Origin: Blastocatellia bacterium
GTDB taxonomy: Bacteria; Acidobacteriota; Blastocatellia; HR10
Direction: 5' to 3'
Assembly (NCBI GenBank): GCA_035573895.1
Contig: DATLZR010000015.1
Location: 7,387-71,386 of the forward strand
Length of the DNA stretch: 64,000 bases
The notes under the pieces are model-generated. The model was not told where the DNA came from. It ran no database searches and was given only the letters and a program-made list of their open reading frames with translations. Each line of letters begins with the position of its first letter. Positions within the stretch are counted from its first letter, which is position 1. Below are positions 9,542 through 43,974 of this stretch, in pieces. The translations under genes and the position numbers were made by a program.

Positions 9542-9544
9542 AGG

Positions 9545-11054: not shown

Positions 11055-11085
11055 TCGTGATTTTCCCTCCTCTCTTGTTGAAATT

Positions 11086-12975
11086 TCAGTTGCTCGGCTT
11101 AAATTCGGCATCAATGACATCATCGGACGATGTGCTGGAACCGGACGATCCCGAAGCTCCCGCACCTGCCGATGTCGCTTGACTATAGGCAGCCGCTGCA
11201 ATCGCATGAGCGACCTGCTGGAGGTCGGACGTCAGTTGACGAATTCGCTCAATTCCCGCCTCCTCTTTGATGGCCTGACGAATCTGGCTGATGAGATCTT
11301 CGGCGCGAGCGCGTTCGTGAACCGGAACCTTGTCGCCCAGGTCGCGCAAAGTCCGCTCGACCTGATAGGCCAGACTGTCGGCTTGATTGCGCGCCTCGAC
11401 CAGCTCGCGCTTCCTCTTGTCCTCTTCGGCATACATCTGAGCGTCCCGGATCATGCGCTCGATCTCTTCCTTGGAGAGCTGGGTCGAGCCGGTGATGGTG
11501 ATCTTTTGCTCCCGACCCGTCGCTTTATCCCGCGCGGTCACATTGAGAATTCCGTTGGCATCAATGTCGAAAGTCACCTCGATCTGAGGGATGCCGCGAG
11601 GAGCCGGAGCGATTCCCTCCAGCCGGAACCGACCGAGCGTGCGATTGTCCCGAGCCATCTCGCGCTCTCCCTGAAGAACGTGGATGTCCACGGCCGTTTG
11701 ATTGTCCTCAGCAGTGGTGAAGATCTCCGTGCGACGGACGGGAATCGTCGTGTTCCGCTCGATGATGCGGGTCATCACACCACCGAGGGTCTCAACGCCG
11801 AGACTGAGCGGCGTCACGTCGAGCAGCAAGACTTCCTTCACCTCTCCGGCCAGGACGCCCGCCTGAATCGCTGCGCCAACAGCGACCACCTCATCGGGAT
11901 TGACCGATTGATTCGGCTCCTTGCCCAGCAGCCGACGGACGAGTTGCTGGACGGCGGGCATGCGGGTCGCTCCTCCGACGAGGATCACCTCGTCAATCTG
12001 ATTCTCGGACAATTTCGCATCGGCCAGGGCTTGCTTGACCGGTCCCACGCATCGCTCGACGAGATCGGCCGTGAGCTGTTCGAATTTCGAGCGCGTCAGC
12101 TTCATCTCCAGGTGCTTCGGTCCGTACGCATCGGCCGTGATGAAGGGAAGACTGATGGTCGTCTCCATCACCGACGACAGCTCGATCTTCGCTTTCTCCG
12201 CCGCTTCGGTCAGCCGCTGCAGCGCCTGGCGATCCTTGCGCAGATCAATGCCGTGCTCGCGCAAAAATTCTTCGGCCATCCAGTCAACGATCCGCTTGTC
12301 AAAATCGTCCCCGCCAAGATGCGTATCGCCGCTGGTGGCCTTCACCTCGAACACCCCATCTCCCACCTCCAGGATGGAGACATCGAAGGTTCCGCCTCCC
12401 AGATCGAAGACGAGGATCGTCTCGTTCTTCTTCTTGTCCAGTCCATAGGCCAATGCCGCGGCCGTCGGTTCGTTGATGATTCGCAGCACATTCAGACCAG
12501 CGATCTTGCCCGCATCGCGCGTGGCTGAGCGCTGGGCATCATTGAAATAGGCCGGCACGGTGATGACGGCATCGGTGACCTTCTCGCCGAGGTAGCGCGA
12601 CGCCTCATCGGCCAGTTTCCGCAAGACCATGGCGGAAATCTCCTCGGGGGCGTAGAGCTTGCCCATCACCTCAAACCGAACAGCATCGTTCGGCCCGGGA
12701 ACGACCTTGTAGGGGACGTTCCGAATCTCGCTGGTGACCTCGGTGTAGCGTCGCCCGATGAACCGTTTCACCGAATAGAGGGTGTTCTCCGGGTTCAAGA
12801 TCGCCTGACGCTTGGCGAGTTGCCCGACCAACCGCTCGCCCGTCTTGGTGAAGGCGACGACCGATGGCGTCGTCCGCCCCCCCTCGCTGTTGACGATCAC
12901 GGTCGGTTTTCCTCCCTCCATGATCGCCACCACGGAGTTTGTCGTTCCTAGATCAATGCCAATTGCCTTCGCCAT
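11086..12975 (-). CDS. dnaK: Molecular chaperone DnaK (Hsp70)
   Basis: 629 aa. [27 protein letters not shown], typical Hsp70 substrate-binding and lid regions. GAGGAGG RBS. Confidence 0.97.
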
Positions 12976-13024
12976 CGTGGTTCCTCCTCACTGAGGTTGA
13001 TCTCCAAGGCCCTGACCGGAAGCC

Positions 13025-13267
13025 TCACGTCGCCCCTCGCGTCGAACGCGACTTCCGGCTCACCGGCTTCTCACTCGCGGGCCTCTCATAGGGAATTCTG
13101 TCGTGAATGAGTTCCTTGAAGGCTTGATTTATCGCCCAGGAAACTCCCGGAGCATCCTGGTGCCGCACCAACTGCTTCGCTCGCTTGGAAACGAGCGTGC
13201 AGATTAAATAGCGGCTGTCCATTTTCGCAATAGCCTCCTCGACGAGCTGTTCTCTCGTGTCAGCCAT
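13025..13267 (-). CDS. rpoZ: DNA-directed RNA polymerase omega subunit-like protein
   Basis: 80 aa. KMDSRYLICTLVSKRAKQL matches the RpoZ core (xxNRFxLVxxAAKRARQL). Strong RBS AGGAGGAG. Confidence 0.55.
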   Translation of the reverse strand: MADTREQLVEEAIAKMDSRYLICTLVSKRAKQLVRHQDAPGVSWAINQAFKELIHDRIPYERPASEKPVSRKSRSTRGAT

Positions 13268-13336
13268 AACTCACTCCTCCTACTTTCGTCCTCCGACTCG
13301 GTTATATCCCCGCGCCTTGCAGGCCACCCTGAGCCA

Positions 13337-13343
13337 TTATACA
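13337..13343 (-). promoter_or_regulatory. Consensus TATAAT (TGTATAAT) at the hsp20 stop codon: possible internal promoter for rpoZ-dnaK
   Basis: The minus strand reads CATGTATAATGG, overlapping the hsp20 TAA stop. A perfect -10 hexamer in a 65% GC background. The -35 candidate is weak (TTCGGA). Confidence 0.25.
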
Positions 13344-13780
13344 TGATTCCCCTCCCCAGTCCGAACCGGAATACGACGGCGTCGCTTGGGCACCCGCAAA
13401 AGCAAAATGCCATCGTTCAGCTCCGCGCTGATCCGGGTGGGATCAACATCTTCGGGAAGCAGAAAGGTCCGAGAAAAATCCCCATACGGCCATTCAATGT
13501 GACGCAAGCGCGCCTTCTGCCATGGCCCCACCAGACGGCGGCCGTCAATGGTTAACTTCCTCCCTTCAACCTTAACCTGAAGGGATTCCCGGTCAACTCC
13601 GGGAAGGTCAACCATAACGGCCATCTCCTCGTCCCCAATGAAGATATTGGCAGGAGGGGAAAATCCTGCAGTATCCGACTGCACCCGGCGCTGTGACACG
13701 CCGGCGAACCACTGATCAGTCCTCACAAGCCGTACGCTTGCGAGATCCTCGACCGGATGAATGCTCTGAACTTTGACCAT
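13337..13780 (-). CDS. Hsp20/alpha-crystallin family small heat shock protein
   Basis: 147 aa. Alpha-crystallin domain pattern (MVDLPGVDRESLQVKVEGRKLTIDG...AELNDGILLLRVPK). Confidence 0.85.
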   Translation of the reverse strand: MVKVQSIHPVEDLASVRLVRTDQWFAGVSQRRVQSDTAGFSPPANIFIGDEEMAVMVDLPGVDRESLQVKVEGRKLTIDGRRLVGPWQKARLRHIEWPYGDFSRTFLLPEDVDPTRISAELNDGILLLRVPKRRRRIPVRTGEGNHV

Positions 13781-13832
13781 CGCTCGGCACCTCTACACGC
13801 TGATCTACTTAAGCCGATCTGTAGAATAAAAT

Positions 13833-13851
13833 ATGAGTCCCATTTTGTCAA
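13833..13851 (-). promoter_or_regulatory. HAIR-like operator overlapping the hsp20 promoter (-35 TTGACA)
   Basis: Minus-strand reading TTGACAAAATGGGACTCAT. The TTGACA doubles as a -35, with a TATTCT-like -10 17 nt downstream. Lies in the AT-rich 217-bp intergenic region. Confidence 0.5.
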
Positions 13852-13933
13852 TATGAGGACGAAAATTTTCATCCCTCGAAGCCCAAACCAATGGAAGCTC
13901 TCCGATAAATAATGAAGCATTGCTCCGACTAAA

Positions 13934-13954
13934 CTTGACAAAAAGAGACTCACA
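13934..13954 (+). promoter_or_regulatory. HAIR-like operator (CTTGACA-N7-ACTCACA) overlapping the hspR promoter
   Basis: Matches CTTGAGT-N7-ACTCAAG at 10/14 positions. Near-identical to the inverted copy at 13833..13851 (TTGACAAAA.G.GACTCA shared). The TTGACA serves as a -35, with a TAGCAT-like -10 downstream. Confidence 0.5.
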
Positions 13955-13997
13955 TATTAGCATAAGGACGGCCTTTCGAGATGGGAGGTGCCAAACA

Positions 13998-14483
13998 ATG
14001 CGGGGCGTGAGCAAAAAGCGAAAAGAAAAAGGATACACCATTAGCGCCGTGGCCGAAGCCTATGGGATTCACCCTCAAACTCTTCGGCTCTACGAACGCC
14101 ATGGCTTGCTCAAGCCGTCCCGCTCCAAAGGGAATACCCGCTACTATTCGGAAGCCGACCTTCGCTCCCTGGAGCTGATCCTGACGTTGACCCGAGATCT
14201 GGGCGTCAATCTCGCGGGTGTGGAAGTGATTCTCAACATGCGGCGGAAGATGGATGCCTTACAGAAGGAAGTGCAGCGATTCATCGAGTACTTACGGGCG
14301 GAGGTTGGAGAACGATTGGCCAATCAGGCAGCCGCCAAGTTTGCGCTTGTCCCCCTGGGACAGACGCCGATAGTCACGATCGAGGAGGACCGGTCGGCGA
14401 TCTTCGAGGGAGATGCGACCCTAGTAGAGGAAGACAATCATACATCGAAAGGAGGTGAGATCTTATTAGCAAAGAAGACATGA
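13998..14483 (+). CDS. hspR: MerR-family heat-shock repressor, HspR-like
   Basis: I chose the ATG at 13998 ([40 protein letters not shown]...), preceded by a GGGAGG RBS. MerR HTH plus coiled-coil. The longer track ORF starts at 13920. The stop overlaps infA. Confidence 0.7.
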
Positions 14484-25281: not shown

Positions 25282-26445
25282 TTATCTTTGAGATCGGCCC
25301 ATTTCGCTCGGCGTGGGCGTTGGTTGACGAAGTTCCGGGCTGGTGAGGGATTTCAAAAACTCGATGAGGTCGCGTTGTTCGTTCTCGGTGAGGCTGATCG
25401 GATGAAGATCCCAATCACGGTAAGGATTATCCCGCCCACCTTGCATGTAGAACCGAATCACCTCCTCGAGAGTGGCGGCGCTGCCGTCATGAAAGTAGGG
25501 AGCCGTCAGTTCGACGTTTCGTAAGGAAGGAGTTTTGAACGCCCCGATGTCCAGCGGATGACCGGTGACGAGGAATCGCCCGAGCGACGATCCGCCGGGT
25601 TCTCCCTCCAGACTCTTCAGGTCAGCGGGGGAGAGGGGTTTCCCCAGCATCCGACGCACTCGCTCCACCAGAGGAAGAAAGGCGGGATCATTCACTGCCA
25701 CTCCGGTGTTGTGATAAAGCTGGTCGGTGAAAAAAGGAAAGGCTGTATTCACGAGATGACAGGTTGCGCAGCGTGCCTTGCCTCGAAAGAGAGCCAATCC
25801 ACGACGGGCCGCCTCGCTCAGAGCGTCGGTCTCTCCCGCCATGAATCGGTCAAATGCCGAATTCCCCGCGATCAGCGTTCGCTCATAAGCAGCGATGGCG
25901 CGAGCAATTCCCTCGCTCGTCACTGTCGAGCCGAACGCCTCGCGAAATTGTCGGACATACTCGGGCACGGCTCGCAGTCGAGCGACGACATCGTCCACAG
26001 ACGCATTCCCCATCTCATCGGGATGAACGAGCGGAAGCAGCGCCTGCGCTTCGAGCGAAGGAGCCCGTCCATCCCACAACTGACCGGCGTGAAACATCGC
26101 GTTGATGAGCGAGGGCGTATGACGCTTTCCCGTCCGCCCGCCGATCCCCACAGCTCGGGGTCTTCCATCGGTGAACGCGCGGGCCGGATCGTGGCACGTT
26201 GCGCAACTGATCGTTCCGTCGGCAGACAATCGAGGATCGAAGAAGAGCTGCCGACCCAGCTCCACTTTCTCCGGCGTCACCGGATTATCCCGCGGGATGA
26301 AATAGGCCCACACCTCCAACGGGATACCCAGGGGAGCCTTCTCAGCACGTAACGGTCGAGCCAGCAAATGAGGGATCAGAACCAGGAGACAGAGGGCACC
26401 CATGGCGATCCCCGGACGACCGACGCTTCGTTCGTTCCCCTTCAT
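25282..26445 (-). CDS. Di-heme cytochrome c peroxidase (CcpA/MauG family)
   Basis: 387 aa. Two CxxCH heme sites (CATCHDP, CATCHLVN), signal peptide. The start may alternatively be the internal ATG at 26403. Its ATG overlaps the stop of the upstream ORF. Confidence 0.85.
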   Translation of the reverse strand: MKGNERSVGRPGIAMGALCLLVLIPHLLARPLRAEKAPLGIPLEVWAYFIPRDNPVTPEKVELGRQLFFDPRLSADGTISCATCHDPARAFTDGRPRAVGIGGRTGKRHTPSLINAMFHAGQLWDGRAPSLEAQALLPLVHPDEMGNASVDDVVARLRAVPEYVRQFREAFGSTVTSEGIARAIAAYERTLIAGNSAFDRFMAGETDALSEAARRGLALFRGKARCATCHLVNTAFPFFTDQLYHNTGVAVNDPAFLPLVERVRRMLGKPLSPADLKSLEGEPGGSSLGRFLVTGHPLDIGAFKTPSLRNVELTAPYFHDGSAATLEEVIRFYMQGGRDNPYRDWDLHPISLTENEQRDLIEFLKSLTSPELRQPTPTPSEMGRSQR

Positions 26446-27164
26446 TGCTCAGCGATCCCCTTGACGATCAAGGCAACGAGACGATCCGCTCCAGAGGTCG
26501 TTTTCAACCTGACGGCAACAATCACACGATCCGCTTCGCCAACGGTCACCGAGGGAAACTCCTTCTGTCCCTCCGCCGAAGTGAGGCTGAGGGAGGCGGG
26601 ATGGTTCGTCCCGGCAGCACGGGCGCTCATCTTCACCAATTGCTCGAAGGGAATTTTGGCTGAGGCATCCCGGTCATCGGCTACCGGGACGAGCAGAAGA
26701 AAATCACGGTAAGGGGAGATCCCCATGTGATTTCCGTCGGCCGGATGAAGCGCGTAGCGCAGCGTGTAGATGCCCGACTTGATGGCCTGTCCGCGAAAAT
26801 CGTTCGTCGCCTGAGCAAAGGAAATAACGCCGATCAAGGTTGATTCAGCCCATTCCGTGTACAAGGTTCCGGGAATGTCGGCCTTCGCTTGTACGGGCAC
26901 CTCCCGGCGAAACCAGATATCGCAATAGACGCTCCCGTCGGCGAGTCGAATGCGGTACCCGCGCTCGTCAAGCACAGCGCGAACGGATTCCGACACGCTC
27001 GGATCGGTGAGAGGACCGAGAGGTTCCAGCTTGACGGTCTGTGCCGGAAAGCCGGGGGCGAGAAGCACCAGCAGGAGAATGCACGTTCCGGGCCATCTCT
27101 TCCACAGAGCTGACAGGAAGGAAGGCCCGGGCAAGCTGCGGGAAGCCGATCTTTTTTGTTTCAT
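26442..27164 (-). CDS. Secreted hypothetical protein co-transcribed with the cytochrome c peroxidase
   Basis: 240 aa. Signal peptide (WPGTCILLLVLLAPGFPAQT). No recognised domain. 4-nt overlap with the CCP start. Confidence 0.55.
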   Translation of the reverse strand: MKQKRSASRSLPGPSFLSALWKRWPGTCILLLVLLAPGFPAQTVKLEPLGPLTDPSVSESVRAVLDERGYRIRLADGSVYCDIWFRREVPVQAKADIPGTLYTEWAESTLIGVISFAQATNDFRGQAIKSGIYTLRYALHPADGNHMGISPYRDFLLLVPVADDRDASAKIPFEQLVKMSARAAGTNHPASLSLTSAEGQKEFPSVTVGEADRVIVAVRLKTTSGADRLVALIVKGIAEQ

Positions 27165-27336: not shown

Positions 27337-28012
27337 TTATCGGGCAAAACTTCCGACAAAAGCGCTTCGCTTCTCGTGGCGTAACCAGACGACGCCCAAA
27401 TCTGGTCCCTGATAGCGATCCACTGTTGCGACGGCGGGCATCGCGTGAGACATTGGAGCGAGCGGAGGATAGTAGATCACTTCGTTTCCGCAGAGATGAT
27501 CCTTGTCGCTGAGCGCGCGCGTTTCCACCACAGCTCGCGATCCTGCCCGAAGGACGACTTTGCCGTAGTGACCTCCTTCGTGATCAACGAAGAAGGTGAT
27601 GGGTGCCGTCTCGACCCGAAGGATGTCGCCGAGCAAGGGGCCGGCCATCGCCTGAGCGAAGCGAACGAGGGCCGTCTGTTGCTGCGGACGCGCGCGTTCG
27701 TCCACGATGACGACGGCCTTGGCGGGATAGGGGGTCGTCGTCGGATCACCGAGCGTGGCGCTCGCTTTGACGACGCCCACAACGGTGAGTCCGTCCAACG
27801 GAATGCCCTCCCACTGTCCGCGCTCGACGTGCCAGGCTAAAATGGCGTGATCGCCCGAGAGTCCCATTTCCGCATTGGCATAGCAGGGACCGGTCCACAC
27901 GTCGGCGCTGCGCGTCTCGACATAATCGCCGCGAATCTGCTGGCCATAGACAGCAGTTCCGCCCAGAAAGAGGAGAAGGGTGACGATGCTTCCCCTGAGA
28001 CCTCGCCGCATG
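27337..28012 (-). CDS. Secreted hypothetical protein at the distal end of the Mo-hydroxylase operon
   Basis: I chose the ATG at 28012 after an AAGGAGGG RBS. The longer track ORF runs to 28110. Signal peptide MRRGLRGSIVTLLLFLGGTAVYGQQ. No recognised domain. Confidence 0.5.
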
Positions 28013-28082
28013 GATTTCCCTCCTTTCCAGCCTCCGTGAAGGTCGGGAGCCCGTAGAAACAGGCCCCGCCGGATGCCGGAGG

Positions 28083-28313
28083 CTAGCTGATTTTGCCTGT
28101 TCCAAAGCATGGCCTTTCCCGTGACGAGCAGCTTACCGGATCAACCGCTTGCCCGTCAGGACCTATCACCGTCTGGGTAAAGATACACCAGTAGAGACCA
28201 TCCCGGCTAGGGAACGTCACTTCGCCGGGAGCCGGTTGGACGAAGCGGTCCTTCCAGCAGAGATGAGGACACAGGTCCTCCAGCGTGACCGTTGCGAAGA
28301 GTGGATCACTCAT
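28083..28313 (-). CDS. Small Cys-containing hypothetical protein (76 aa)
   Basis: ATGA overlap with the stop of the FAD-subunit gene. Cys pattern CPHLCW...C...C...C. No homology assignable. Confidence 0.35.
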   Translation of the reverse strand: MSDPLFATVTLEDLCPHLCWKDRFVQPAPGEVTFPSRDGLYWCIFTQTVIGPDGQAVDPVSCSSRERPCFGTGKIS

Positions 28314-29299
28314 CGTGCACCTCCTCGGGCCGCCTGCACGAGGGCCCGTTTGACGGCAACGCGGGCGAGTTGAATCTTGTAGGCATTTTGGCTCAGAGGC
28401 TTAGCCGGAGCGACCGCTGCCCGCGCGGCTTCATCGGCCAGCGCATCGCTCATCGTCTTGCCCACGAGAACACGCTCGGCCTCAGCCGATCGCCAGGGAA
28501 CCGGCGCGACGTGCCCCAGAACGACGCGCGCCGACTCAATGCGCTGACCGCTCATTCGGAGAGCAACCGAGGCCGTTGCCAGCGGCCAGTCGAGAGCCTC
28601 CCGTTGACGCACCTCATAGGTGGCACTCACCAGATTGGTCGGCGGCGGGATGAGGACCTCGGTGACCAACTCGTTGGATCGAAGATCGTATTCGCGTTCG
28701 GTCTCGGATCGCGGCGCACGATAAAACGCCTCCAGGGGAACTTCTCGCGCCCCGCGCGGGCCGAAGATACGAACCCGCGCGCCGTAGGCGATGAGCGCCG
28801 GGGCTAAGCTGGAGGGATTGACGAAGTAGGCAGGGCCGTCGGTGCCCAGGATGGCGTGATAGCGATTATCTCCCTCGAGCACCAGCGAACGGCCGGATTC
28901 ATCGCGCGCCAAAAGTCCGAAGCCAGCGCGAAAATACCAGCAGCGGGGCCGTTGACAGAGGTCTCCGCCGACGGTGCCCCTGTTTCGGATCTGTGGACTC
29001 CGTACGCCCTCGGCTGCCGCTACCAAGGCGGGATACCGGCGGGCTTCAGGGTGATCAAGCAATTCCTGGAGCGTGACCAGTGCGCCGATGCGCAGTCCCC
29101 GGCTGGCGCTGTAACTGATCCCTTGCAGCTCCTTGATCCCCTTGATGTCAACCACTCTCTTCGGCCGCACGATATCATCCTTCATGAGCGCGAGCAGATC
29201 GGTTCCACCGGCGAGAATTTCCGTATCGCCCCAGGCGCTCGCCAGCAGGGCGACGGCTTGTTCCTTCGTTGTCGGATGGGCATACTCGAATGGACGCAT
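28310..29299 (-). CDS. Molybdenum hydroxylase FAD-binding subunit (CoxM/XdhB-like)
   Basis: 329 aa. ILAGGTDLL, GTVGGDLCQRPRCWYFR FAD-binding signatures. Confidence 0.85.
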   Translation of the reverse strand: MRPFEYAHPTTKEQAVALLASAWGDTEILAGGTDLLALMKDDIVRPKRVVDIKGIKELQGISYSASRGLRIGALVTLQELLDHPEARRYPALVAAAEGVRSPQIRNRGTVGGDLCQRPRCWYFRAGFGLLARDESGRSLVLEGDNRYHAILGTDGPAYFVNPSSLAPALIAYGARVRIFGPRGAREVPLEAFYRAPRSETEREYDLRSNELVTEVLIPPPTNLVSATYEVRQREALDWPLATASVALRMSGQRIESARVVLGHVAPVPWRSAEAERVLVGKTMSDALADEAARAAVAPAKPLSQNAYKIQLARVAVKRALVQAARGGAR

Positions 29300-29301
29300 G
29301 G

Positions 29302-31440
29302 TTAACCTCCCTTCTTCTCCAGCGCCTGGAGAACGCGATCCGGCGTCATGGGCAGGTAGGGGACGCGCACGCCGATGGCATTGGCCACAGCGTTGGACAG
29401 GGCCGCTCCCGGCGAAATCACCGGCGGCTCTCCCAAACCGATGACGCCACGTTCGTCGTACCCTTTGCCCGTCATCATGTGAACGACCAGTTCACCGATG
29501 TCGCCAATGCCGGCCAGCTTGTAAAACTCCATGTTGGGATTGAGCATCCGTCCGGTGATGCGATCCATGATCTTCTCCTCGTAAAGCGAGTAGCAGATGC
29601 CCTGGATCATCGCGCCGTAGCACTGGCTTTCGGCAGCTTTCATATTGATGATGAGGCCACAATCCTGGACGCAGACCATCTTGTTGACCTTGATGATGCC
29701 GGTCTCGATATCCACCGACACATCGGCCATCATCACGCCGCCCACACCGCCTGAGGTCAGCGTCCCCGGTCCTGGATTCCGACCGCGCACCGACAAGGGC
29801 ATGCCTCCGAGTCGGGCGCAGGCCTGCTGCCAGGGGAGCGAACGGGAGGGATTATTCTTCACGCGAATCGTTCCTCCCACCGCTTCGAGATCTGCCGGTG
29901 CAGCCCCCAGCACCGGAGCCACTTTCTCGAAGATTTGGTCGAGTGCATCGAGGGCGGCCCGTCGGGCAGCCGAGCACACACCGCCGACGGTCGTACTTCC
30001 TCCGGATGGGCCGGATGCCGGGAAGCGATTATCGCCGATCTCGACGGTGACGGCCGACAGGGGCAGTCCCAGCGTATCCGCGATGACAACGCCGATTGCC
30101 GTGCGGGTTCCCGTCCCCAGATCCTGCGAGCCAAGTTGCACCCGAACCGATCCATCCGGCTGGATCGTCAGATCGCATTCGCTGGCATGACCGAGACCTC
30201 CCCACGTGTGGATCGAGAGACCCAGGCCGCGCTTGATCGGTCCGGAGGTTTTATCTCCGCGTGGGTGCCAGTTCTTCTTCCAGCCGATCAAATCGGCAGC
30301 GATGCGCAACTCCTCACGATAAATCTCGGCCCGCTGGCCGGTCAACGCGATATTTTTGAGAAACAGATCCAGCGGATCCATCTGAAGCGCCGCCGCCAGA
30401 TCATCCAGGGCTGCCATGGTAAGAAGACATGCCTGCGGGTGATTCGGTGCACGCCAGGCGCGCGCCGGGCCAATATGGTTGAGAATGAGGGTGTGCTTTT
30501 TGCGGAAGTTGGGAATGGCGAAGATGTAGGGGATCTGCTGCAGCGGTGACGCGCCGGCGGTAGGCCCCGCCGTTCCCCAGGATTCGGATTCCCAGGCCAG
30601 AATTGTGCCATCGCGCTTGGCGCCCACTTTGACGCGACCGTAAACCGACGGACGCGCGCCCGCGACCATTAACTCGGCGTCTCGTTCGAGCATAATCTTG
30701 ACCGGCTTGCCCCCGGCTAATTTCGACAGACGGGCACCCTCGATGCCCCAGCGATCGGGGCCGAACTTGCTTCCGAATCCTCCACCGATATGATCCTGGC
30801 GCACGCGGATGTTTCCCGCCGGTATCTCCAGAGGCGCCGCCATCTGAGCGGCAATCCCCGATACGTTTTGCGTCGAGATGTGGACGAGCAGATTATTTTC
30901 CCCCTCCCACTCAGCAATGGAGCCGTGAGGTTCCAGGCAGCAATGGGTGATGACGGCCATCCCGTAGGTGCCCTCGGTCACAACATCGGCCTCGGCGAAG
31001 GCCGCATCAGGGTTACCTCTGGTTTCTTCCCCGGCGGGCCGAACTTGATCACCGGCCGCCTTCAGGTCGTGATCAACAACGAAATGTGGCAGCTTTTCAT
31101 AGACGACTTTGATGGCCCGGATAGCATCTTCGGCGGTGGGTTCGTCCACAGCCGCCACGGCGACGACTTCGTCTCCCGCCCAGAGAATCTCCTTGCCGGG
31201 TTCCTGAATGATCTTCACGGCCTTGACGCCCGGCATCTTCTCGGCGGCGCTGGTATCAATGCTGACGATTCGGGCATGCGCATAGGGACACCGGAGGATC
31301 TTCCCGTAGAGCATCCCCGGACGATTCACATCGTAGGTGTATTTCGCTCGGCCCGTGACTTTGTCCGGCCCGTCGAGGCGGTTGTGGCGTTTGCCGATGA
31401 GACTGCGTTTTTCCGGTTCAGGCCATTTATACTCCGCCAT
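29302..31440 (-). CDS. Molybdenum hydroxylase large (molybdopterin-binding) subunit, xanthine dehydrogenase/aldehyde oxidase family
   Basis: 712 aa. N-terminal GKRHNRLDGPDKVTGRAKYTYD, Ald_Xan_dh_C2-type core. Confidence 0.85.
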   Translation of the reverse strand: MAEYKWPEPEKRSLIGKRHNRLDGPDKVTGRAKYTYDVNRPGMLYGKILRCPYAHARIVSIDTSAAEKMPGVKAVKIIQEPGKEILWAGDEVVAVAAVDEPTAEDAIRAIKVVYEKLPHFVVDHDLKAAGDQVRPAGEETRGNPDAAFAEADVVTEGTYGMAVITHCCLEPHGSIAEWEGENNLLVHISTQNVSGIAAQMAAPLEIPAGNIRVRQDHIGGGFGSKFGPDRWGIEGARLSKLAGGKPVKIMLERDAELMVAGARPSVYGRVKVGAKRDGTILAWESESWGTAGPTAGASPLQQIPYIFAIPNFRKKHTLILNHIGPARAWRAPNHPQACLLTMAALDDLAAALQMDPLDLFLKNIALTGQRAEIYREELRIAADLIGWKKNWHPRGDKTSGPIKRGLGLSIHTWGGLGHASECDLTIQPDGSVRVQLGSQDLGTGTRTAIGVVIADTLGLPLSAVTVEIGDNRFPASGPSGGSTTVGGVCSAARRAALDALDQIFEKVAPVLGAAPADLEAVGGTIRVKNNPSRSLPWQQACARLGGMPLSVRGRNPGPGTLTSGGVGGVMMADVSVDIETGIIKVNKMVCVQDCGLIINMKAAESQCYGAMIQGICYSLYEEKIMDRITGRMLNPNMEFYKLAGIGDIGELVVHMMTGKGYDERGVIGLGEPPVISPGAALSNAVANAIGVRVPYLPMTPDRVLQALEKKGG

Positions 31441-31443
31441 GGC

Positions 31444-32067
31444 TCATCCTCCTTTCTGCATCCGCGCCGCCTGCATCACCGCGGCTTGAATGCCCACGTA
31501 TGTACCGCAGCGACAGAGATTGCCGCCGAGTCCCTTCCGAATCTCCTCCGGCGTCGGATTGGGGTGCCGGTCGAGAAATGCTTTGCAGGCGACGACAAAC
31601 CCCGGCGTGCAGAAGCCACATTGCAGGGCGTCATTATCCACGAAGGCCTGCTGAATCGGATGCAAGCTGCCGGCTGCTGCCAATCCCTCGACGGTGGTGA
31701 TGGCGTGGCTCTGAGCTTCGATGGCCAGGATGGAACACGCATAAACCGCCTTGCCGTCGAGCAGCACCGTGCAGGCTCCGCAGGTCCCCCGATCGCATAC
31801 CCGTTTGGCCCCGGTCAGATCGAACTCCTGACGCAAGGCATCGAGCAAGGTCACCCGTGGTTCCAACTCCGCCGTGAATTTTTTACCGTTAATGGTGAAC
31901 GTCATCGGGACCTTCCCCGGTCCCTGAAGGGCAACGGGAGCGCCCGCGACGCGGATAATGCGGGTCCCCATCACCAGAGGAACCGAGAAGGAAATTCCCG
32001 ACACCTTCAAGAAATCGCGTCGAGAGATCCCGACGCTCTCCTTGCGAATCCGATCATCGTCGCGCAT
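31444..32067 (-). CDS. Molybdenum hydroxylase (2Fe-2S)-binding small subunit with Tat signal peptide
   Basis: 207 aa. SRRDFLK twin-arginine motif. Plant-type ferredoxin Cys (CDRGTCGACTV) and second cluster (CGFCTPG, CRCGTY). Confidence 0.85.
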   Translation of the reverse strand: MRDDDRIRKESVGISRRDFLKVSGISFSVPLVMGTRIIRVAGAPVALQGPGKVPMTFTINGKKFTAELEPRVTLLDALRQEFDLTGAKRVCDRGTCGACTVLLDGKAVYACSILAIEAQSHAITTVEGLAAAGSLHPIQQAFVDNDALQCGFCTPGFVVACKAFLDRHPNPTPEEIRKGLGGNLCRCGTYVGIQAAVMQAARMQKGG

Positions 32068-32103
32068 CGTCCACTCCTTTCCGCCAAGTGGCCCGCGAAA
32101 CCT

Positions 32104-32532
32104 TTAGCGGTCCGGCACCGCCACTTCGCGCAACTCAAGTGGAGCCCCGCAGCAGGGACAGCGTCCGGGAACCGGTTCCGTGATGCTGCAGGTCTCACAC
32201 ACGTAGGACAACTCAAACTTCCGTCCGTCGCGCAGCCAAAAAACGCGAATGAGTTCCAACTCTCCCGCGGGATGCTGGACTGCCAAAATCTCCAGCTCTC
32301 GCCGACGTATCCTCTCATCGCGGAAGAGGGCGACCGCACGATCCCCCGAACGAAACCCATAGACGCGCCCCTCGGTCGTCCTGAAAATAAACTGATGAGG
32401 GGCAGACGCACCGGGCTTTTCCTCCACATGCCCTCGAACGATGATGCGTCCGCTCGAGGGAGAGGTCATCTGAGTCATGAAACCGGGAGTCGAAAAGACA
32501 CTCAGGATGAGGAGTACGATCCCCCAGGACAT
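32104..32532 (-). CDS. Membrane-anchored hypothetical protein with C-terminal CxxC...CxxC zinc ribbon
   Basis: I chose the ATG at 32532 (MSWGIVLLILSVF... TM helix). The longer track ORF runs to 32634. The C-terminus has CETCSITEPVPGRCPCCG. Confidence 0.4.
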   Translation of the reverse strand: MSWGIVLLILSVFSTPGFMTQMTSPSSGRIIVRGHVEEKPGASAPHQFIFRTTEGRVYGFRSGDRAVALFRDERIRRRELEILAVQHPAGELELIRVFWLRDGRKFELSYVCETCSITEPVPGRCPCCGAPLELREVAVPDR

Positions 32533-32659
32533 TAGCCAGCGGAAGGGCCATACCGATCCGGCCGTCCCGTTGGTCCTTTCGCTCGCTAAACGCACGATAT
32601 CCTCTCCCCGGTGCGTGTCAGAGTGCGGGGCCAATACTATCAGAGGCCCGAAAGATATG

Positions 32660-33781
32660 TCAACGCATCACCTTTCGGATGTCGCCGAGCGTGAGATAGC
32701 CGATGATGAATCCCTGATCATCGAGAACGGCCGCTGACCCGATGCCGTTCTCGCTGAGAGTGAGATGGGCTGTCACCAGTGACGTGTGAGGGAAAAGGAA
32801 GAGTCGCGGATTGACCGGCTGCATCACATCCCAGACTTTCAGCGTCGGCCAGCGATCGCGGGAAATGCTTTCGAGTCTCTTCAGCGCCAGGATGCCATGA
32901 AGCCGACCGTCCGGGGACACGGGAAAGGTCAGGCTGCGACAGTGGGGGAGAATATGATCCACCACCTCCTGAACTGTTAAATCCGGTCGGAGCCGGGTCG
33001 GCGGTTCAGTCATCACATCGGCCACAGTCAGTTGCTGAAGCGATTGCATGGCGCGCAGATGGCTCAGGCTCTGGGCGGCGGCGTCCTTGAGAAAGATCCC
33101 GATGAGAATGGCCCACGATCCGGCGAAAATATCGGCGCCGGTCTCGGCCCGCAAGCACCAGTAGATTCCTAATACCAGCAGCGTGTAGGCAATGGCCTGC
33201 CCCGACCGAACCGCCCAACGACTGGCCTCCCAGGGGTCACCGCGAAGATGCCACATCAGCGCGCGGAACACGCGCCCTCCATCCAGCGGAAATCCCGGAA
33301 GCAAATTAAAGAGGGCCAGGATGAGATTGGACAACGCCAGATAGTTGGTAATAAGCGCCCCCGGACGCGAGTCGAAGACGTAGATGCTCATCTGATTGAG
33401 AACGAAGAAGAGAACGGCGTAGAGGAAACTCGTTCCCGGTCCCGCGATGGCAATGCGCAATTCGGCTCCCGGCGACGTGACATCCCGCTCGAATCGCGCC
33501 AGGCCCCCAAACAGATGCAACGTGATGTCACGAATCCGAATCCCTTCGGCTCGCGCCACCAGCGCATGACCGATTTCATGTCCGAGAACGGACAGAAACA
33601 GGAGAATCGTGGCTGCCGAACCGAGAATCCAGTATTCGACCGGACGAAGATGATGAAGATGGCGCGGCAGATAAAGCGCCGACATCGCAAACAAATGGAG
33701 GATGAAGATCGGGAACCAGCCGTAGCTCAGCCGGATGGGAATATCGAAGAGTCGCGCCACTGTGATCGGTTTGAGCCGCAC
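32660..33781 (-). CDS. Site-2 protease family (M50) zinc metalloprotease with C-terminal CBS domain pair
   Basis: 373 aa. HEIGHAL HExxH motif, PLDGGRV, multiple TM helices, C-terminal tandem CBS. Confidence 0.85.
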   Translation of the reverse strand: MRLKPITVARLFDIPIRLSYGWFPIFILHLFAMSALYLPRHLHHLRPVEYWILGSAATILLFLSVLGHEIGHALVARAEGIRIRDITLHLFGGLARFERDVTSPGAELRIAIAGPGTSFLYAVLFFVLNQMSIYVFDSRPGALITNYLALSNLILALFNLLPGFPLDGGRVFRALMWHLRGDPWEASRWAVRSGQAIAYTLLVLGIYWCLRAETGADIFAGSWAILIGIFLKDAAAQSLSHLRAMQSLQQLTVADVMTEPPTRLRPDLTVQEVVDHILPHCRSLTFPVSPDGRLHGILALKRLESISRDRWPTLKVWDVMQPVNPRLFLFPHTSLVTAHLTLSENGIGSAAVLDDQGFIIGYLTLGDIRKVMR

Positions 33782-33864
33782 GGTTGACGTTCGATCTTAC
33801 ACCGAGCCGCTTGCCGGAGGGGAAGTCCTCCGCCGTTATGTTCCGGCGGCGGTCGCGACCACCA

Positions 33865-34353
33865 TCACGGAGTCCGCACGCGGCCGTTGCCCGGCGGTCG
33901 CGCGGGGATCGCTTCTCCGGAGTCAGCGGCCGAAGCCGATCCGTTTGGTCCCGGCTTGAGCCCCAGCCGGCGGAGCGCGAGAGCCGTGGGATAGCCCGTG
34001 ATATCGAGATTCTCCGCCTGTTGAAAGCGTTTCATCGCGTTCACCGTTTCGGCGTCATAAACTCCTGAGGGCGGGCCTTCGAGGTAGCCTCGCGCAATTA
34101 GCGCATTCTGAATCTCCAGCACCCTCTCGCGGGGAATTCGCGCTCCCGGCACAATCGCCACCCGACGCGCGCGACGACTACGCGCGGACCGAGGCGATGA
34201 TCGGGACGATTTTCCCTTCGGCGTCGCCACACGACGCAGGGTTGACTTCTTGGCCTTTTGTGACGACGGAAGGGGTCGAGACTCCATAACCGGTACCAGA
34301 AGAGCGAGCACAAGCATCACACCTATCACCCTGGCGAGCGTTCTTCTTCTCAT
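33865..34353 (-). CDS. Secreted protein with peptidoglycan-binding (PG_binding_1-like) domain
   Basis: I chose the ATG at 34353 after a GGGAGGTG RBS. The longer track ORF runs to 34368. Signal peptide, basic S/R-rich linker. LEIQNALIARGYLEGPPSGVYDAETVNAMKRFQQAENLDITG matches the PG-binding fold. Confidence 0.65.
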   Translation of the reverse strand: MRRRTLARVIGVMLVLALLVPVMESRPLPSSQKAKKSTLRRVATPKGKSSRSSPRSARSRRARRVAIVPGARIPRERVLEIQNALIARGYLEGPPSGVYDAETVNAMKRFQQAENLDITGYPTALALRRLGLKPGPNGSASAADSGEAIPARPPGNGRVRTP

Positions 34354-34421
34354 CGCACCACCTCCCACCGACCAATGCGTTTCCTCCCGCCGCGGCGCAA
34401 TCAGGACGACGAACGAATCGG

Positions 34422-35993
34422 TTAGGGCACCGTGCCGGAGAGAATATCCCGGGATGGTCCCCGGGACCGACTCGGACGAGCGATGACGATCACCACATCA
34501 TCGCCCGATTTCAACCCGTCAAATGCACGCTTGAACTCATCGGGTCCGGTGATCTCCCGACGATTCATCGTGAGAATGACATCACCGGGAAGCAGGCCGA
34601 TTTCTTCGGCGAAACTTCCCTCCTCGACTTCGGAGACGAGCGCCCCTTTCGCTTCCTGAAGGTTGAGAGATCGAGCGACGTGCGGAGTGACCGATTCCAG
34701 TCGCGCCCCGAAGCTGGGCTTGACCCTGGGTTCATCCTTTCCTCGTCCCCCTTCCTCTCCGGGCGCTGGGGGAGTCGTGCCGGATTCCCCTCGTTGAGCG
34801 ATGGAGGGGCGCATCCCCAGCTTCACGCTGGTGACGTATTCCTTGCCGTCTCGAATGTAGGTGAGCCGAACGGTGCGCCCGGCCTCCGTGCCGGCGACCC
34901 GTCGGGTGAGATCCCGACTATCCTGAACGGGTTGGCCTTCAAAGGCGATGATGATGTCGCCGGTGCGCAGGCCCGCTTGCCCCGCCGGACTGTCATCGCC
35001 GATGACATTCTGAACGAGAGCGCCTCGAGGCTCCTTCATCCCGTTGAGTCGCGCCACCTGCGGCGTCACCGGCTTGAGCCACACACCGAGATAGCCGCGT
35101 GTGACCCGCCCGGTGCTGACCAATTGATTGTAAATCTCTACGGCCAGAGTTGACGGAAGAGCGAAGCCCACGCCGTTAAACGTTCCCGTGTTGGTGGGGA
35201 TTTGCGTGTTAATTCCCACGACCTCGCCAAAGAGATTGATCAGCGGTCCGCCGGAATTTCCCGGATTAATCGCCGCGTCCGTCTGCAAGAATTTCTGGAA
35301 CTGACTCAGCGGCCCATCGGTCACCCGATCTTTTGCGCTGATGATTCCCGCCGTCACCGTCTGTTCTAATCCGAAGGGGCTGCCAATGGCCAGGACCCAA
35401 TCGCCCACTCGCAATCGGTCGGAATCGCCAAGCTTAGCGGCGGGCAACGGCTCGCTGGCAGAGATCTTGATGACGGCCAGATCCGTTTCGGGATCCGTCC
35501 CCACGACCTCGGGGATGAAAGTTCGACCGTCTCGCAGCTTGACGCGAATGGTCGTGGCTCCTTCAATGACGTGGTTATTGGTGAGAATATAGCCCGATGG
35601 ATCAACGATGACGCCCGAACCGGTCCCGCGCCGTATCCCATGAGGAGGCCGACCGAAGAAATCGAACACGTCACGACGACCTGAGCGACCGGATTCCGTC
35701 TCGATGTGAACGACCGCCGGTTCGACCATTCGAGCGACCTGGGCGAAAGCTTCTGACAGGGCCATGGCCGTGGCAATCGGTCCCGTGGCGACAGCTTCCG
35801 AACTGCTCACCTTGATGAGATGACCGCTCTGGCCGGCTGATGCTCCACCCGATACAACGACTCCGATGCCGATGCCCACGAGCAAAGTGACGACCAGAGC
35901 CACCGGCATCACCCAGGATCGCAAGCGCACTGCCGACGGCGTCTCCATCGGCACAACGACCGAACGCTCAGACATTCCCTCTTGTTCGTCCAT
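34422..35993 (-). CDS. Second HtrA/DegP-family serine protease (two PDZ domains)
   Basis: 523 aa. TM anchor, GYILTNNHVIEGA, GNSGGPL, two PDZ segments. Confidence 0.9.
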   Translation of the reverse strand: MDEQEGMSERSVVVPMETPSAVRLRSWVMPVALVVTLLVGIGIGVVVSGGASAGQSGHLIKVSSSEAVATGPIATAMALSEAFAQVARMVEPAVVHIETESGRSGRRDVFDFFGRPPHGIRRGTGSGVIVDPSGYILTNNHVIEGATTIRVKLRDGRTFIPEVVGTDPETDLAVIKISASEPLPAAKLGDSDRLRVGDWVLAIGSPFGLEQTVTAGIISAKDRVTDGPLSQFQKFLQTDAAINPGNSGGPLINLFGEVVGINTQIPTNTGTFNGVGFALPSTLAVEIYNQLVSTGRVTRGYLGVWLKPVTPQVARLNGMKEPRGALVQNVIGDDSPAGQAGLRTGDIIIAFEGQPVQDSRDLTRRVAGTEAGRTVRLTYIRDGKEYVTSVKLGMRPSIAQRGESGTTPPAPGEEGGRGKDEPRVKPSFGARLESVTPHVARSLNLQEAKGALVSEVEEGSFAEEIGLLPGDVILTMNRREITGPDEFKRAFDGLKSGDDVVIVIARPSRSRGPSRDILSGTVP

Positions 35994-40607: not shown

Positions 40608-42293
40608 TCAGAGGCGAAATCCGAAGAGCACAAACACCGCTCCGTTATTGAATTTCGTGGCGGCGCTGGCATTGGGCGCACTGAGCAATAAATCCACACG
40701 GCCATCGGCATCCACGTCCCCGAAGGCGACGAAGGCCCCCAATTGATCGCTGGCGGCAGCGCCCAGGATAAAAGCATCCGGTTGAACCATCGCCTCACCG
40801 CCGACGTCGAGCGTCGTGCCGCTTGTGCGAAGACGCCCATCGAGGAAGATGTAGACCTCACCGGATTCAGCGCGTTCGTTCTTGTCACCATCAGCGGTGG
40901 GAGCACCGATGAGCAAATCCGGGAGCTGATTTCCGTTGACATCACCGACGGCGAGCGCCGTTCCCATTTCGTCTCCCGCTTCGGCGCCGAAGATGCGGAC
41001 ATCGGCCGCCGGACCCGCCTGACCGAGGACATCGCGGACCGCACCGGTCTTCATCTCCGCGCCGCCGAAAAAGATATAGACCTCGCCGGCGCTCGCCCGC
41101 TTGGCTTCCGGACCGTCGGCTTGAACGGCACCGACGATGACATCATCCGCGCCATCGCCGGTGACATCGGCCACCAGAAGGGTGAAGCCGAAGAGATCTT
41201 CCTTGACTCCTCCATAGAGGATGACATCCGCGCCCTGGGGTGTCGCCGATGCGAGGTCGCGCACGCCGCCGCGCCGAAGATCAGGACTGCCGAGAACGAT
41301 GTAGACTTCGCCCGCATTCGTGCGTTCGGTGTTGGGCCCGTCACCCAGAGGGGCGCTGACGACGATGTCGGGGAGCCGATCTCCATTGACATCTCCGACG
41401 GCAACCTGAAATCCGAAGAATCCGAGAACGCTCGGCCCCAGGATCACCAGATCGGCGCCTTGAGGGGGACTTGCCGCCAGATCACGAAACTGGCCGCTGG
41501 TCATCGTGCGCCCGCCAAAGAGCGCATAGATGGTGCCTGCCAGAAAGCGCGTCCCCTGGGGGGAAGCATTGGCCGAGGCCGCCACGATATCCTGAATGCC
41601 GTCGCCGGTGAGATCGGTCAGAGCCAGCGAGGAACCGAGATGATCTTCGGTTTCTGCGCCGAAGATGATGAGGTCGGCGCCGGGAGCCACGATACCGGCC
41701 ATATCGCGGCGCGTTCCCGGCACGAGATGCGGCCCGCCATAAATGACGTAGATGCGCCCGGCGTGCGTCCGCGCATCCGGCAACCCCGCTGCTCGTGGGG
41801 CCCCGATAATGATGTCGGCAATTCCATCCCCCGTGACATCACCCGTCGCCAGAGATACGCCAAACCGATCATCGCTCTCCGCACCCACAATCACCACGTC
41901 GGCTCGCGCTGCCAGATCAACCGTACGACTGGTCGCCAGATCAATTCCTCCGAAGACGACGTAGACCGCCCCCACATCGAACCGGACGTTCACCGCATCG
42001 TTGGCCAGAGGCGCGGCAGCCACCACATCGGGCAACCCATCGCCGTTGACATCGGCGATGGAGACCCGAGCGAGTTGATCGCTGCTTATGGCCCCGGCAA
42101 TCGTCAGGCTGACGGTGCCCGCCGTGGACAGGTCAATCTTTTTGGGCTGCGGCGCTTCCTGAGCCCGAACCGACAAAAACCGTGGTCCAGGCGAAAGGAG
42201 AACCAATAAAAACATCACCGGCAGCGTCCGAGCGACTCTCGCTCGACGCAGCTCCCGCAGGGGGAAGAGAGGGGTTACGTCTTGTCGTGGCAT
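40608..42293 (-). CDS. Secreted FG-GAP/integrin-alpha-like repeat protein
   Basis: 561 aa. Signal peptide. Repeated VGDVNGDGxxDxxVGAP...GxVYVxFG units. Confidence 0.8.
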
Positions 42294-42760
42294 CTGACAA
42301 AATCTCCCGATCGTCCACCGGTCTTCTTCTCCAGTTGAAGATCGGTGATGGTCATGGTCTTATCAATCGCCTTACACATATCGTAGACGGTCAAGGCCGC
42401 GACGGCAGCGGCCATGAGGGCTTCCATCTCCACGCCGGTTGGCCCGGTCGTCGTCACCGACGAGAGGATGGCCACGCCATCATCCCGGAGCTGAAGCTCC
42501 ACATCAACGTGCGTGAGCAGGAGCGGATGGCACAGAGGTATCAATTCGGCCGTCCGCTTGGCCGCCATGATTCCCGCCAGCCGGGCCGTTTCCAGGGGAT
42601 CGCCTTTTGGTGTTCGGCCAGTGCGAATAGCCTGCACGGCCTCCGAAGACATGTGCACGAAGCCGCTGGCCTGCGCCGTGCGCACGGTGGGCGGTTTGGT
42701 CGTCACATCCACCATGCGGGCGCGACCTTCGGCATCAACGTGTGTCAGCTCACGGCGCAT
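42275..42760 (-). CDS. moaC: Cyclic pyranopterin monophosphate synthase MoaC
   Basis: 161 aa. [39 protein letters not shown]. Confidence 0.92.
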
Positions 42761-43974
42761 GATGTCCCCGGCAAAAGAAGCGTCCGGCAGATCGTCCCCT
42801 GTGAGAGCATCATGACCTCCTCCGGCACAACGATCAATGCATTGGCCGAGACGAAGGCGACGAAATCCGAGCTACCGCCCCAGCGCAGCGGGTGCACGCG
42901 GACCTCACCGGATTCAATCGTGAGCCGCCCCGGCAGATAACTCCGCCGATCAGGGGCGCGTCGCACATCGCCGAGGAGCCGGGCCTGGACAACGGGCAGA
43001 AATCGCTCACGCGCTCCCATCATCTGCCGCAGCGCCGGATAAACGAAGAGCAAAAACGTCACCGCCACCGACACCGGGTTCCCCGGCAACGCGAAAACGG
43101 GTTTGCCTTCCAGAAGGGCAAACACCGTCGGCTTCCCCGGATGCACGCACACTTTCTCGAAGAAAATCGTCGCCCCCAGCCGACCCAGTGCCGCTTTCAC
43201 CAGGTCATAATTGCCCATCGAAACGCCGCCGGTGAGGACGAGAACATCTACTTCTCGGAGAGCACGGGCGATGATTTCCGCCGTAATTCTCTCATCGTCA
43301 ACGACCATGCCGAAGCATCGCGGGCACGCTCCGGCGAGTTGAACATACGCGGCGACGGAGAAACTGTTACTGTCACGAATCTGGGAGGGGGAGGGCACGA
43401 CATCAACGGGAACAAGTTCGGATCCCGTCGAGATGATGCCCACCACCGGGCGACGAGCCACCGTGACGCGAGCGCAGCCGAAGGAAGCGAGCACGGCCAT
43501 CTCGGGCGGGCCGATCACCGTTCCCGATCGGAGAACGACATCACCCCGCCGCGCTTCGCTGCCCCGCGAGGTCACATTCTCACCGACGCGCACGGGCTGC
43601 CGAATCGTCACCCAGGATTCATTGGCGTCGCACGCTTCGATCTTTTGCACGGCATCGGCTCCAGCAGGCAGAGGAGCACCCGTCATGATCCGCACGGCCT
43701 CGCCGGAATTGACCGTCCCGGTGAAGGATGAACCCGCCGCCACTTCGCCGATGATGCGCAATCGAGCGGGAACCGTGGTCGCGTCAGCAGCCCGAAGGGC
43801 AAAACCATCCATCCGCGCGCGATCAAACGGCGGCATGTCAATATCTGCGACGACATCCTGAGCGAGCACCCGGCCCGAGGCCTCGCCAAGCGGAATTTCC
43901 TCGAGCGAGTGCGTCATGATCTTCTCCGAGATGATCGCCTGCGCCGCCTCAACGGAGATCATGGCCGAAACCAT
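42745..43974 (-). CDS. moeA: Molybdopterin molybdotransferase MoeA
   Basis: 409 aa. MoeA N, MoCF-binding (GGVSMG) and C-terminal domains. Confidence 0.9.

Follow-up and report, generated by a model that had tools for sequence, protein, structure and literature searches.

Here, we describe a gene cluster in a 64,000-nucleotide stretch (hereafter the window; positions are counted from its first letter) of contig DATLZR010000015.1 from a Blastocatellia bacterium (phylum Acidobacteriota, assembly GCA_035573895.1). The region is probably the core of a conserved Acidobacteriota cluster that encodes a molybdenum enzyme of the three-subunit xanthine-oxidase family, exported through the twin-arginine translocation (Tat) pathway. 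Its FAD subunit has lost most of the cysteines that hold a [4Fe-4S] cluster in related enzymes, and the gene encoding it is followed, in every related locus where both genes could be seen, by that of a 76-residue protein with four invariant cysteines (s76). From this pairing we infer that the FAD subunit has s76 as an obligate partner, and we put forward tentatively, as somewhat short of an even bet, that it is a fourth subunit, whose Cys4 metal or Fe-S centre replaces the lost [4Fe-4S] subdomain either structurally or electronically.

The cluster comprises eight co-directional genes that run on the minus strand from 32634 down to 25282, in the order ZnR-FeS-Mo-FAD-s76-DUF1326-p240-CCP:

32104-32634, minus strand: ZnR, zinc-ribbon protein, 176 aa as longest open reading frame (ORF); no Pfam or NCBIfam match
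31444-32067, minus strand: FeS (small subunit), 207 aa; Fer2 and Fer2_2 domains, Tat signal SRRDFLK
29302-31440, minus strand: Mo (large subunit), 712 aa; Ald_Xan_dh_C, MoCoBD_1 and MoCoBD_2 domains
28310-29299, minus strand: FAD (medium subunit), 329 aa; FAD_binding_5 and CO_deh_flav_C domains
28083-28313, minus strand: s76, 76 aa; no Pfam or NCBIfam match
27337-28011, minus strand: DUF1326 protein, 224 aa, secreted; Pfam DUF1326
26442-27164, minus strand: p240, 240 aa, secreted; no Pfam or NCBIfam match
25282-26445, minus strand: CCP, 387 aa; di-haem CCP_MauG protein with signal peptide

The spacing of the genes is operon-like: gaps of 2-3 nt separate FeS from Mo and Mo from FAD, and ATGA overlaps join FAD to s76 and p240 to CCP. 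The ATG of s76 overlaps the TGA stop of the FAD-subunit gene and has a GGAGG 6 nt upstream. A weakly supported sigma-70-like site (32663-32634) lies at the start of ZnR; as the annotated TTG of this gene overlaps the promoter-like site, its true start is probably further downstream. A first-pass annotation, made from the sequence alone, had outlined a Tat-exported molybdenum hydroxylase operon at 27337-32634, and all the ORFs that it described were recovered on the minus strand: the FeS-Mo-FAD genes with the SRRDFLK signal, the ATGA-coupled 76-aa Cys-containing ORF, and the preceding zinc-ribbon gene with its hydrophobic N-terminal segment and C-terminal Cys motif. It was also right in calling the gene order unlike that of PaoABC (small-large-medium here, small-medium-large in E. 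coli paoABCD). The left edge was misplaced, since p240 and CCP continue the cluster to 25282, and the secreted protein of 225 aa, which does exist and has a signal peptide, has a supported length of 224 aa and belongs to DUF1326 rather than being uncharacterised. The loss of [4Fe-4S] ligands, the strict coupling of s76 to the FAD subunit and the two downstream cluster genes had been overlooked, as had the precedent that Thauera hcrCAB provides for the small-large-medium order.

To collect related loci, genomes and metagenomes were scanned with s76 as the seed, and tblastn was then run with every cluster protein. Conservation of the small ORFs had been named beforehand as a point to check: s76 was located directly downstream of FAD, in the order FeS-Mo-FAD-s76, in 91/91 loci that showed both genes, and the ZnR and DUF1326 genes were kept within the window's own subclade. 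The spacing between FAD and s76 is tight (4-nt overlap, 0 nt or 3 nt), and each of five Mo homologues looked up independently (5/5) had a 76-77-aa gene after the FAD subunit. For two distant s76 members (E 3e-8 and 1e-10) a contig position could be assigned, and there too the gene follows that of a FAD subunit, with a 1-nt overlap or at 0 nt. A profile search recovered 1600 s76 relatives, and HMMER, run exhaustively over 1.84 billion representatives (E <= 1e-3), gave 559 clusters at 50% identity, almost all of them 65-100 aa in length. The few long proteins (P0351 and P0367 included) owe their length to frameshifts that join s76 to DUF1326 or FAD; these two are no natural domain fusions, yet they confirm the adjacency in further genomes. 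One candidate locus (L006, from Corynebacterium) was discarded as a chance GPDGQAVDP match in a long spurious ORF, with no Mo-enzyme genes.

The s76 protein carries no signal peptide, and its translation is coupled to that of the FAD subunit. Across 121 relatives, aligned without filtering, the cysteines C15, C43, C62 and C69 never vary, and neither do L18, W20, K21, W42, G51-P52-D53 and R67. No relative was found in Pfam, NCBIfam or the Protein Data Bank (PDB), the profile searches against PDB sequences and Pfam giving chance-level matches only, and there was no similarity to XdhC, NapD or TorD. AlphaFold2, supplied with a diverse alignment, predicted a compact and mostly irregular fold (pLDDT 85.5, pTM 0.72); the prediction depends on the alignment, as a shallow set of similar sequences gave a pLDDT of 55. 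With its 559 clusters, and with neither a Pfam or NCBIfam model nor a PDB fold match, s76 defines an undescribed protein family.

The FAD subunit (best PDB match 5y6q_B, E 8e-51, full length) keeps the PaoB/HcrB-type insertion of ~40 residues, in which one of the four [4Fe-4S] cysteines is left (RPRCWYF). The insertion itself is highly conserved in the clade (...CQRPRCWYFRxGxGLL...NRYHAILG...), and the ligand loss extends from the window protein to every one of the 63 distinct FAD subunits of the clade, where the other three positions are occupied by Leu, Leu/Ser and Ala; one clade FAD subunit lacks even the first ligand Cys. All four cysteines are kept in PaoB, 5y6q_B, HcrB and three plasmid outgroups. 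The four-Cys motif has been described as characteristic of PaoABC (PMC13404670), and the extra [4Fe-4S] cluster in the insertion of HcrB-type subunits is credited to the Hcr structure paper, as cited in PMC3958847. For comparison we used four operons with the Pao gene order, namely E. coli paoABCD and plasmid loci of Granulicella (an acidobacterium), Streptomyces and Microvirga, none of which has an s76-like ORF and all of which have the complete Cys set. Taken together, s76 presence coincides with an incomplete ligand set in 64/64 cases and s76 absence with a complete set in 4/4 operons, an association that comes from a small comparator sample (4 operons checked for s76) and carries no tree correction.

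Each expected domain of the three-subunit xanthine-oxidase family was found by Pfam (E 1e-20 to 1e-52). The FeS subunit, of the two-[2Fe-2S] type (start as tabulated: MRDDDRIRKESVGISRRDFLK), matches Fer2_2 at E 3e-30 as well as Fer2, and its N-terminus (MRDDDRIRKESVGISRRDFLKVSG...) shows a consensus twin-arginine motif, SRRDFLK, with a hydrophobic stretch after it; clade relatives keep the motif as SRR[DNG]FL[KT]. None of the three subunits reached any NCBIfam equivalog cut-off. The Mo subunit obtained 315 bits with the PaoC model (cut-off 1180), 344 with XdhA (780), 303 with HcrA (995) and 148-191 with the CO dehydrogenase models (950-991), its top NCBIfam E-values being those of the XdhA models. 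The FeS subunit scored 178 bits against the PaoA model (cut-off 322), and the top NCBIfam match of the FAD subunit was the HcrB model TIGR03195 (180 bits, cut-off 405). The closest PDB entries to the Mo subunit are PaoC (5g5g, E 6e-69), HcrA (1rm6) and 5y6q_C, and its identity to E. coli PaoC amounts to 28.7%. Among 5.8 billion proteins searched at E <= 1e-30, the Mo subunit has more than 7,900 homologues, of which the best 120 are 71-97% identical and originate from Blastocatellia and other Acidobacteriota, where they are unnamed or labelled 'YagR' or 'xanthine dehydrogenase family'. Judged by these comparisons, the Mo subunit is part of a large, tightly conserved and uncharacterised acidobacterial clade. 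Whether it would group with a known enzyme had been raised in the first-pass annotation; it clusters with no characterised one.

The active site was mapped by alignment to PaoC, the numbering being verified by the R440 and E692 columns. Q191, R330, P332 and E671 of the Mo subunit are invariant among 121 family members, with E671 corresponding to PaoC E692. The catalytic Glu671 and Gln191 are present, and the substrate-determining positions hold Phe226, Ser298, Pro332 and Trp413, the last of which falls at the PaoC Arg440 column and is likewise invariant in the 121 members. In bovine xanthine oxidase, Glu802 and Arg880 bind xanthine, while E1261 is the catalytic Glu and Q767 the active-site Gln. 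In the columns that we take to be those of Glu802 and Arg880 (placed via the GGGFGxK and IPN...FRGFG motifs and the bovine sequence), the window protein has Phe226 and Ser298, and the AYRCSFR loop of CoxL is absent from it. The inspection of active-site residues proposed earlier thus found the catalytic Glu and Gln in place and the xanthine-specific Glu/Arg pair and the CO-dehydrogenase loop missing, a set that fits an aldehyde or aromatic hydroxylase and not a purine or CO enzyme.

No XdhC/CoxF-type domain was found in the cluster genes or in 44 scanned window ORFs (outside the cluster, ORFs of at least 150 aa were covered), in agreement with the first-pass annotation. No XdhC-family gene was found in the related clusters L007, L009, L011, L097, L103 and L104 either, and the three plasmid outgroup operons are likewise without an adjacent XdhC; hence, its absence is not unusual and does not in itself imply that s76 substitutes for it. 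Two genes of molybdenum cofactor (Moco) synthesis, moaC (42275-42760) and moeA (42745-43974), are encoded on the minus strand ~10 kb from the Mo enzyme.

The remaining cluster genes are more variable, and their frequencies were taken among loci with enough flanking DNA. ZnR combines an N-terminal hydrophobic anchor or signal with a C-terminal YVCETC-x10-CPCCG motif, its conserved residues being C146, C149, C159, C161, C162, P156 and G157. In L007-L012, L023, L035, L089, L103 and L104 a homologue immediately precedes the FeS gene, and the frequency of this arrangement among the loci with enough flanking DNA is 8/42. Since the homologues mostly carry cleavable Sec-type signals, the Cys-rich domain is predicted to be periplasmic. 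The window ZnR has a long non-conserved N-terminal extension ahead of the hydrophobic segment and is without the two N-terminal-domain cysteines (VC...C) of most homologues (compare L011, L023, L103 and L104). Its PDB sequence search gave nothing significant, the rubredoxin-like domain of rubrerythrin and a metal-binding domain of a Cu-ATPase appearing at E 0.4-0.6 only.

The DUF1326 gene occupies an ORF of 27337-28110 with a supported start at ATG 28011, preceded by an AGGAGG Shine-Dalgarno sequence; the protein has a signal peptide, matches Pfam PF07040 at E 7e-15 (56.1 bits, gathering threshold 25) and has conserved residues that include C76, C207, H222 and M224. In p240 the conserved residues are C81, H146 and H188, and these Cys, His and Met patterns hint at metal sites in both proteins. 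PDB sequence searches with either protein returned nothing significant, and the idea that they might be paralogues was rejected on comparison. The two genes are found together in 21/70 loci with at least 1.6 kb of downstream sequence, their co-occurrence being complete (21/21). The CCP protein matches CCP_MauG (E 3e-63, 213 bits against 25.6), has CxxCH motifs at C81 and C226 and stays below the equivalog cut-offs of MauG (266/444 bits) and MbnH (251/363 bits), so that it is assigned to no subfamily. Its position is matched in L011, L023, L103 and L104, and in L097/L098 a counterpart is encoded nearby (two genes away in the distant L097). The ATGA-coupled p240 and CCP recall the arrangement of MbnP-MbnH, in which the di-haem enzyme modifies its periplasmic partner; this is an analogy only, and a reading of p240 and CCP as an MbnP/MbnH pair, suggested by gene order and the MbnH-family score, is unsupported, as p240 matches no NCBIfam model.

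In 13/42 loci the gene directly upstream of FeS encodes a monohaem cytochrome c instead (~105 aa, CxxCH, signal peptide, same strand; L015, L017, L019, L036, L044, L054, L056, L062, L063, L072, L076, L088 and L090). This cytochrome c and the DUF1326/p240 pair were never found together (0/12 vs 15/25), while ZnR accompanies DUF1326 in 6/7. Two types of cluster thus emerge: Terriglobia-like loci have cyt c-FeS-Mo-FAD-s76, whereas ZnR-FeS-Mo-FAD-s76-DUF1326-p240-(CCP), the type of the window, is the rule among its close relatives. The mutual exclusion suggests either alternative electron-acceptor modules or simple lineage sorting.

Several of these observations weigh against s76 as a substitute for the lost cluster, or against the wider system drawn around it. 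The spacing of its cysteines (C-x27-C-x18-C-x6-C) is no canonical Fe-S or zinc-knuckle pattern, and a role in disulfides or structural zinc sites would be just as conceivable for them. At L094 (141-1381), the distant s76 homologue P0377 follows a FAD subunit that keeps three of the four cysteines; this locus may represent an intermediate between PaoB-type and window-type FAD subunits, and because s76 and three Cys occur in it side by side, s76 cannot have replaced the cluster in a simple exchange of one for the other. Outgroups, too, have Trp in place of PaoC R440, which is therefore not diagnostic. CCP is adjacent in just 4/47 of the s76-sampled loci (3/5 among Mo-sampled close relatives). 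Finally, the exclusivity of cytochrome c and DUF1326/p240 may reflect lineage only, as the loci were collected through s76 and are not independent of one another in phylogeny.

The strongest rival explanation makes s76 a cytoplasmic maturation factor with a PaoD-like role (Tat proofreading or escort, or insertion of Moco or Fe-S), released before export. It would account for the missing signal peptide, and strict co-occurrence and translational coupling suit a chaperone as well as a subunit; moreover, paoD is the last gene of paoABCD (PMC3909100), small dedicated chaperones are typical of Tat-exported redox enzymes (PMC2997495, PMC10609526), and no XdhC-family gene accompanies the window cluster or the six related clusters listed above. 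Nevertheless, a 76-aa Cys4 protein resembles neither XdhC, NapD, TorD nor any Pfam or PDB family, the outgroups also do without an adjacent XdhC and so call for no substitute, and signal-less subunits are routinely co-exported by hitch-hiking (PMC4273604). As a chaperone role would also leave the tracking of s76 with the ligand loss of the FAD subunit unexplained, we consider it rather unlikely, and keep s76 as a candidate fourth subunit.

The other rivals concern the enzyme as a whole. A reductase working in the reverse direction, like the 4-hydroxybenzoyl-CoA reductase HcrCAB, could be argued from HcrB as the top NCBIfam match of the FAD subunit (180 bits), from HcrA, which ranks second among the PDB relatives of the Mo subunit, and from the small-large-medium gene order common to both systems, yet the HcrB score lies far below its 405-bit cut-off, and CoA thioesters and ferredoxin are cytoplasmic whereas the present enzyme is Tat-signalled. 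Furthermore, the inverted electron flow of Hcr depends on a ferredoxin-fed [4Fe-4S] cluster (according to the title of Unciuleac et al. 2004, cited in PMC3958847), for which the ligands are missing here; altogether, we find such a reductase highly improbable. An ordinary PaoABC (YagTSR) orthologue for aromatic-aldehyde detoxification, with small ORFs that are incidental or mis-called, would agree with the database name 'xanthine dehydrogenase YagR', with PaoC as best PDB match and with an FeS subunit that, like PaoA, bears the Tat signal. Out of six PaoABC features, this signal is the only one that we found: the equivalog scores of all three subunits are far under the Pao cut-offs, three of the four PaoB cluster cysteines are gone, PaoC R440 is replaced by Trp, paoD is missing and the gene order differs. 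With the low identity to PaoC and the strong conservation of the small ORFs added, this reading is scarcely credible; orthology itself is refuted, and aldehyde oxidation may still be a shared function. Equally hard to credit is a xanthine/purine or CO dehydrogenase, as the generic annotation would have it: the XdhA models do give the top NCBIfam E-values and the sources do say 'xanthine dehydrogenase family', but the scores amount to less than half of the cut-offs, Phe and Ser stand at the bovine Glu802/Arg880 positions, the AYRCSFR loop is lacking and the location is predicted to be periplasmic.

In our reading of the system, the holoenzyme and its cofactors would be assembled in the cytoplasm and exported folded via Tat, the Mo and FAD subunits presumably hitch-hiking on the signal of the FeS subunit by analogy with PaoABC, in which PaoB and PaoC are exported in this way with the Tat-signal PaoA (PMC4273604). 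At the Mo site an aldehyde or similarly activated carbon of a hydrophobic or aromatic compound may be hydroxylated, as the residues lining the site suggest, and the electrons would pass, as in known relatives, from Mo through two [2Fe-2S] clusters to FAD. We envisage s76 docking on the FAD subunit, at the insertion that has lost its cluster or close to it, and contributing through its four cysteines a metal or redox centre in place of the missing one. The acceptor at the exit would be periplasmic: the monohaem cytochrome c in lineages that encode one upstream, and ZnR/DUF1326/p240 and/or O2 in clusters of the window type, where the di-haem peroxidase might remove or use H2O2. For PaoABC, the terminal acceptor was reported as not identified, with no use of NAD+ and a slow reaction with O2 (PMC3958847). 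The most far-reaching version of the proposal, in which s76 is a new class of miniature metalloprotein subunit, with a fold not seen before, whose Cys4 centre takes over in trans the structural or electron-exit role that the [4Fe-4S] subdomain plays in cis in PaoB/HcrB-type subunits, DUF1326/p240 is a new kind of periplasmic redox partner interchangeable with cytochrome c, and the four-subunit enzyme type is abundant in soil Acidobacteriota, strikes us as doubtful when taken as a whole.

Among the structurally described systems, PaoABC/PaoD (PDB 5g5g/5g5h) is similar in its subunit composition (small subunit with 2x[2Fe-2S], medium with FAD, large with Moco), in the Tat signal restricted to the FeS subunit, in the insertion of the FAD subunit and in the conserved Glu (E692/E671), Gln, Arg and Pro of the Mo site, where xanthine-specific residues are absent. 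It differs in that the acidobacterial clusters add the obligatory s76 and several periplasmic proteins, namely ZnR, DUF1326 and p240, with either a di-haem peroxidase or a cytochrome c. The aldehyde oxidase of Methylobacillus sp. (5y6q) is also a small/medium/large heterotrimer with the same FAD-subunit insertion; however, 5y6q_B keeps all four cluster cysteines and the large subunit is a distant match (E 4e-56, in pieces). This enzyme is not known to have an s76-type partner. HcrCAB of Thauera aromatica (1rm6) shares the subunit types and a homologous insertion, and its gene order (gamma-alpha-beta) is small-large-medium as well; in contrast to the Tat-signalled window enzyme without cluster ligands, it is a cytoplasmic ferredoxin-dependent reductase with a [4Fe-4S] cluster. 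The membrane-bound or periplasmic aldehyde dehydrogenases of acetic acid bacteria (8gy3) are periplasm-facing members of the xanthine-oxidase family that pass electrons to c-type haem, a parallel to the cytochrome c gene encoded upstream in 13/42 of the related loci. There, however, a multi-haem cytochrome replaces the FAD subunit, whereas the clade described here keeps FAD, its cytochrome is a separate small monohaem protein and the window itself has none.

We came across no description of a four-gene core with a Cys4 mini-protein, whose predicted fold is unmatched, and a cluster-less insertion in the family libraries or the searched literature, and publications on DUF1326, on YagR/YagT of Acidobacteria, on fourth subunits and on hcrCAB held nothing specific to the clade. 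Acidobacteriota are among the most abundant soil bacteria, and this enzyme, 55-77% identical across classes of the phylum, is one of their better-conserved exported redox proteins. A strictly co-inherited Cys4 protein that appears exactly where the FAD subunit lost its cluster ligands offers a testable handle; if s76 is indeed a subunit, it would constitute a new architecture in a textbook enzyme family and bear on how Pao-type periplasmic molybdo-flavoenzymes dispose of electrons. On the basis of the comparisons above, thousands of Acidobacteriota database entries under 'xanthine dehydrogenase YagR' are mis-named, and the s76, p240 and ZnR families merit family models.

Upstream of the cluster (32660-35993, minus strand), the window encodes an M50+CBS site-2-type protease, a PG_binding_1 protein and an HtrA/DegP protease. 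All three also flank the cluster in L007, and at least M50 does so in L035 and L089; being absent from L009, L011, L103 and L104, the block represents lineage synteny and is no part of the system. A second HtrA paralogue (5176-6792) and FtsH (2676-4553) lie near a heat-shock block (6893-14483) that contains ClpB, DnaJ and DnaK, an unassigned 211-aa ORF where GrpE would be expected, and a MerR/HspR-like regulator that is divergent. At 1141-2679 (minus strand), one 512-aa ORF joins LigB-type extradiol dioxygenase and AMMECR1 domains. The segment from ~54 to 64 kb has a lower GC content (0.56) and an unusual AT skew, and holds a fused nucleotidyltransferase+HEPN gene (59093-59797, plus strand) of toxin-antitoxin-like character.

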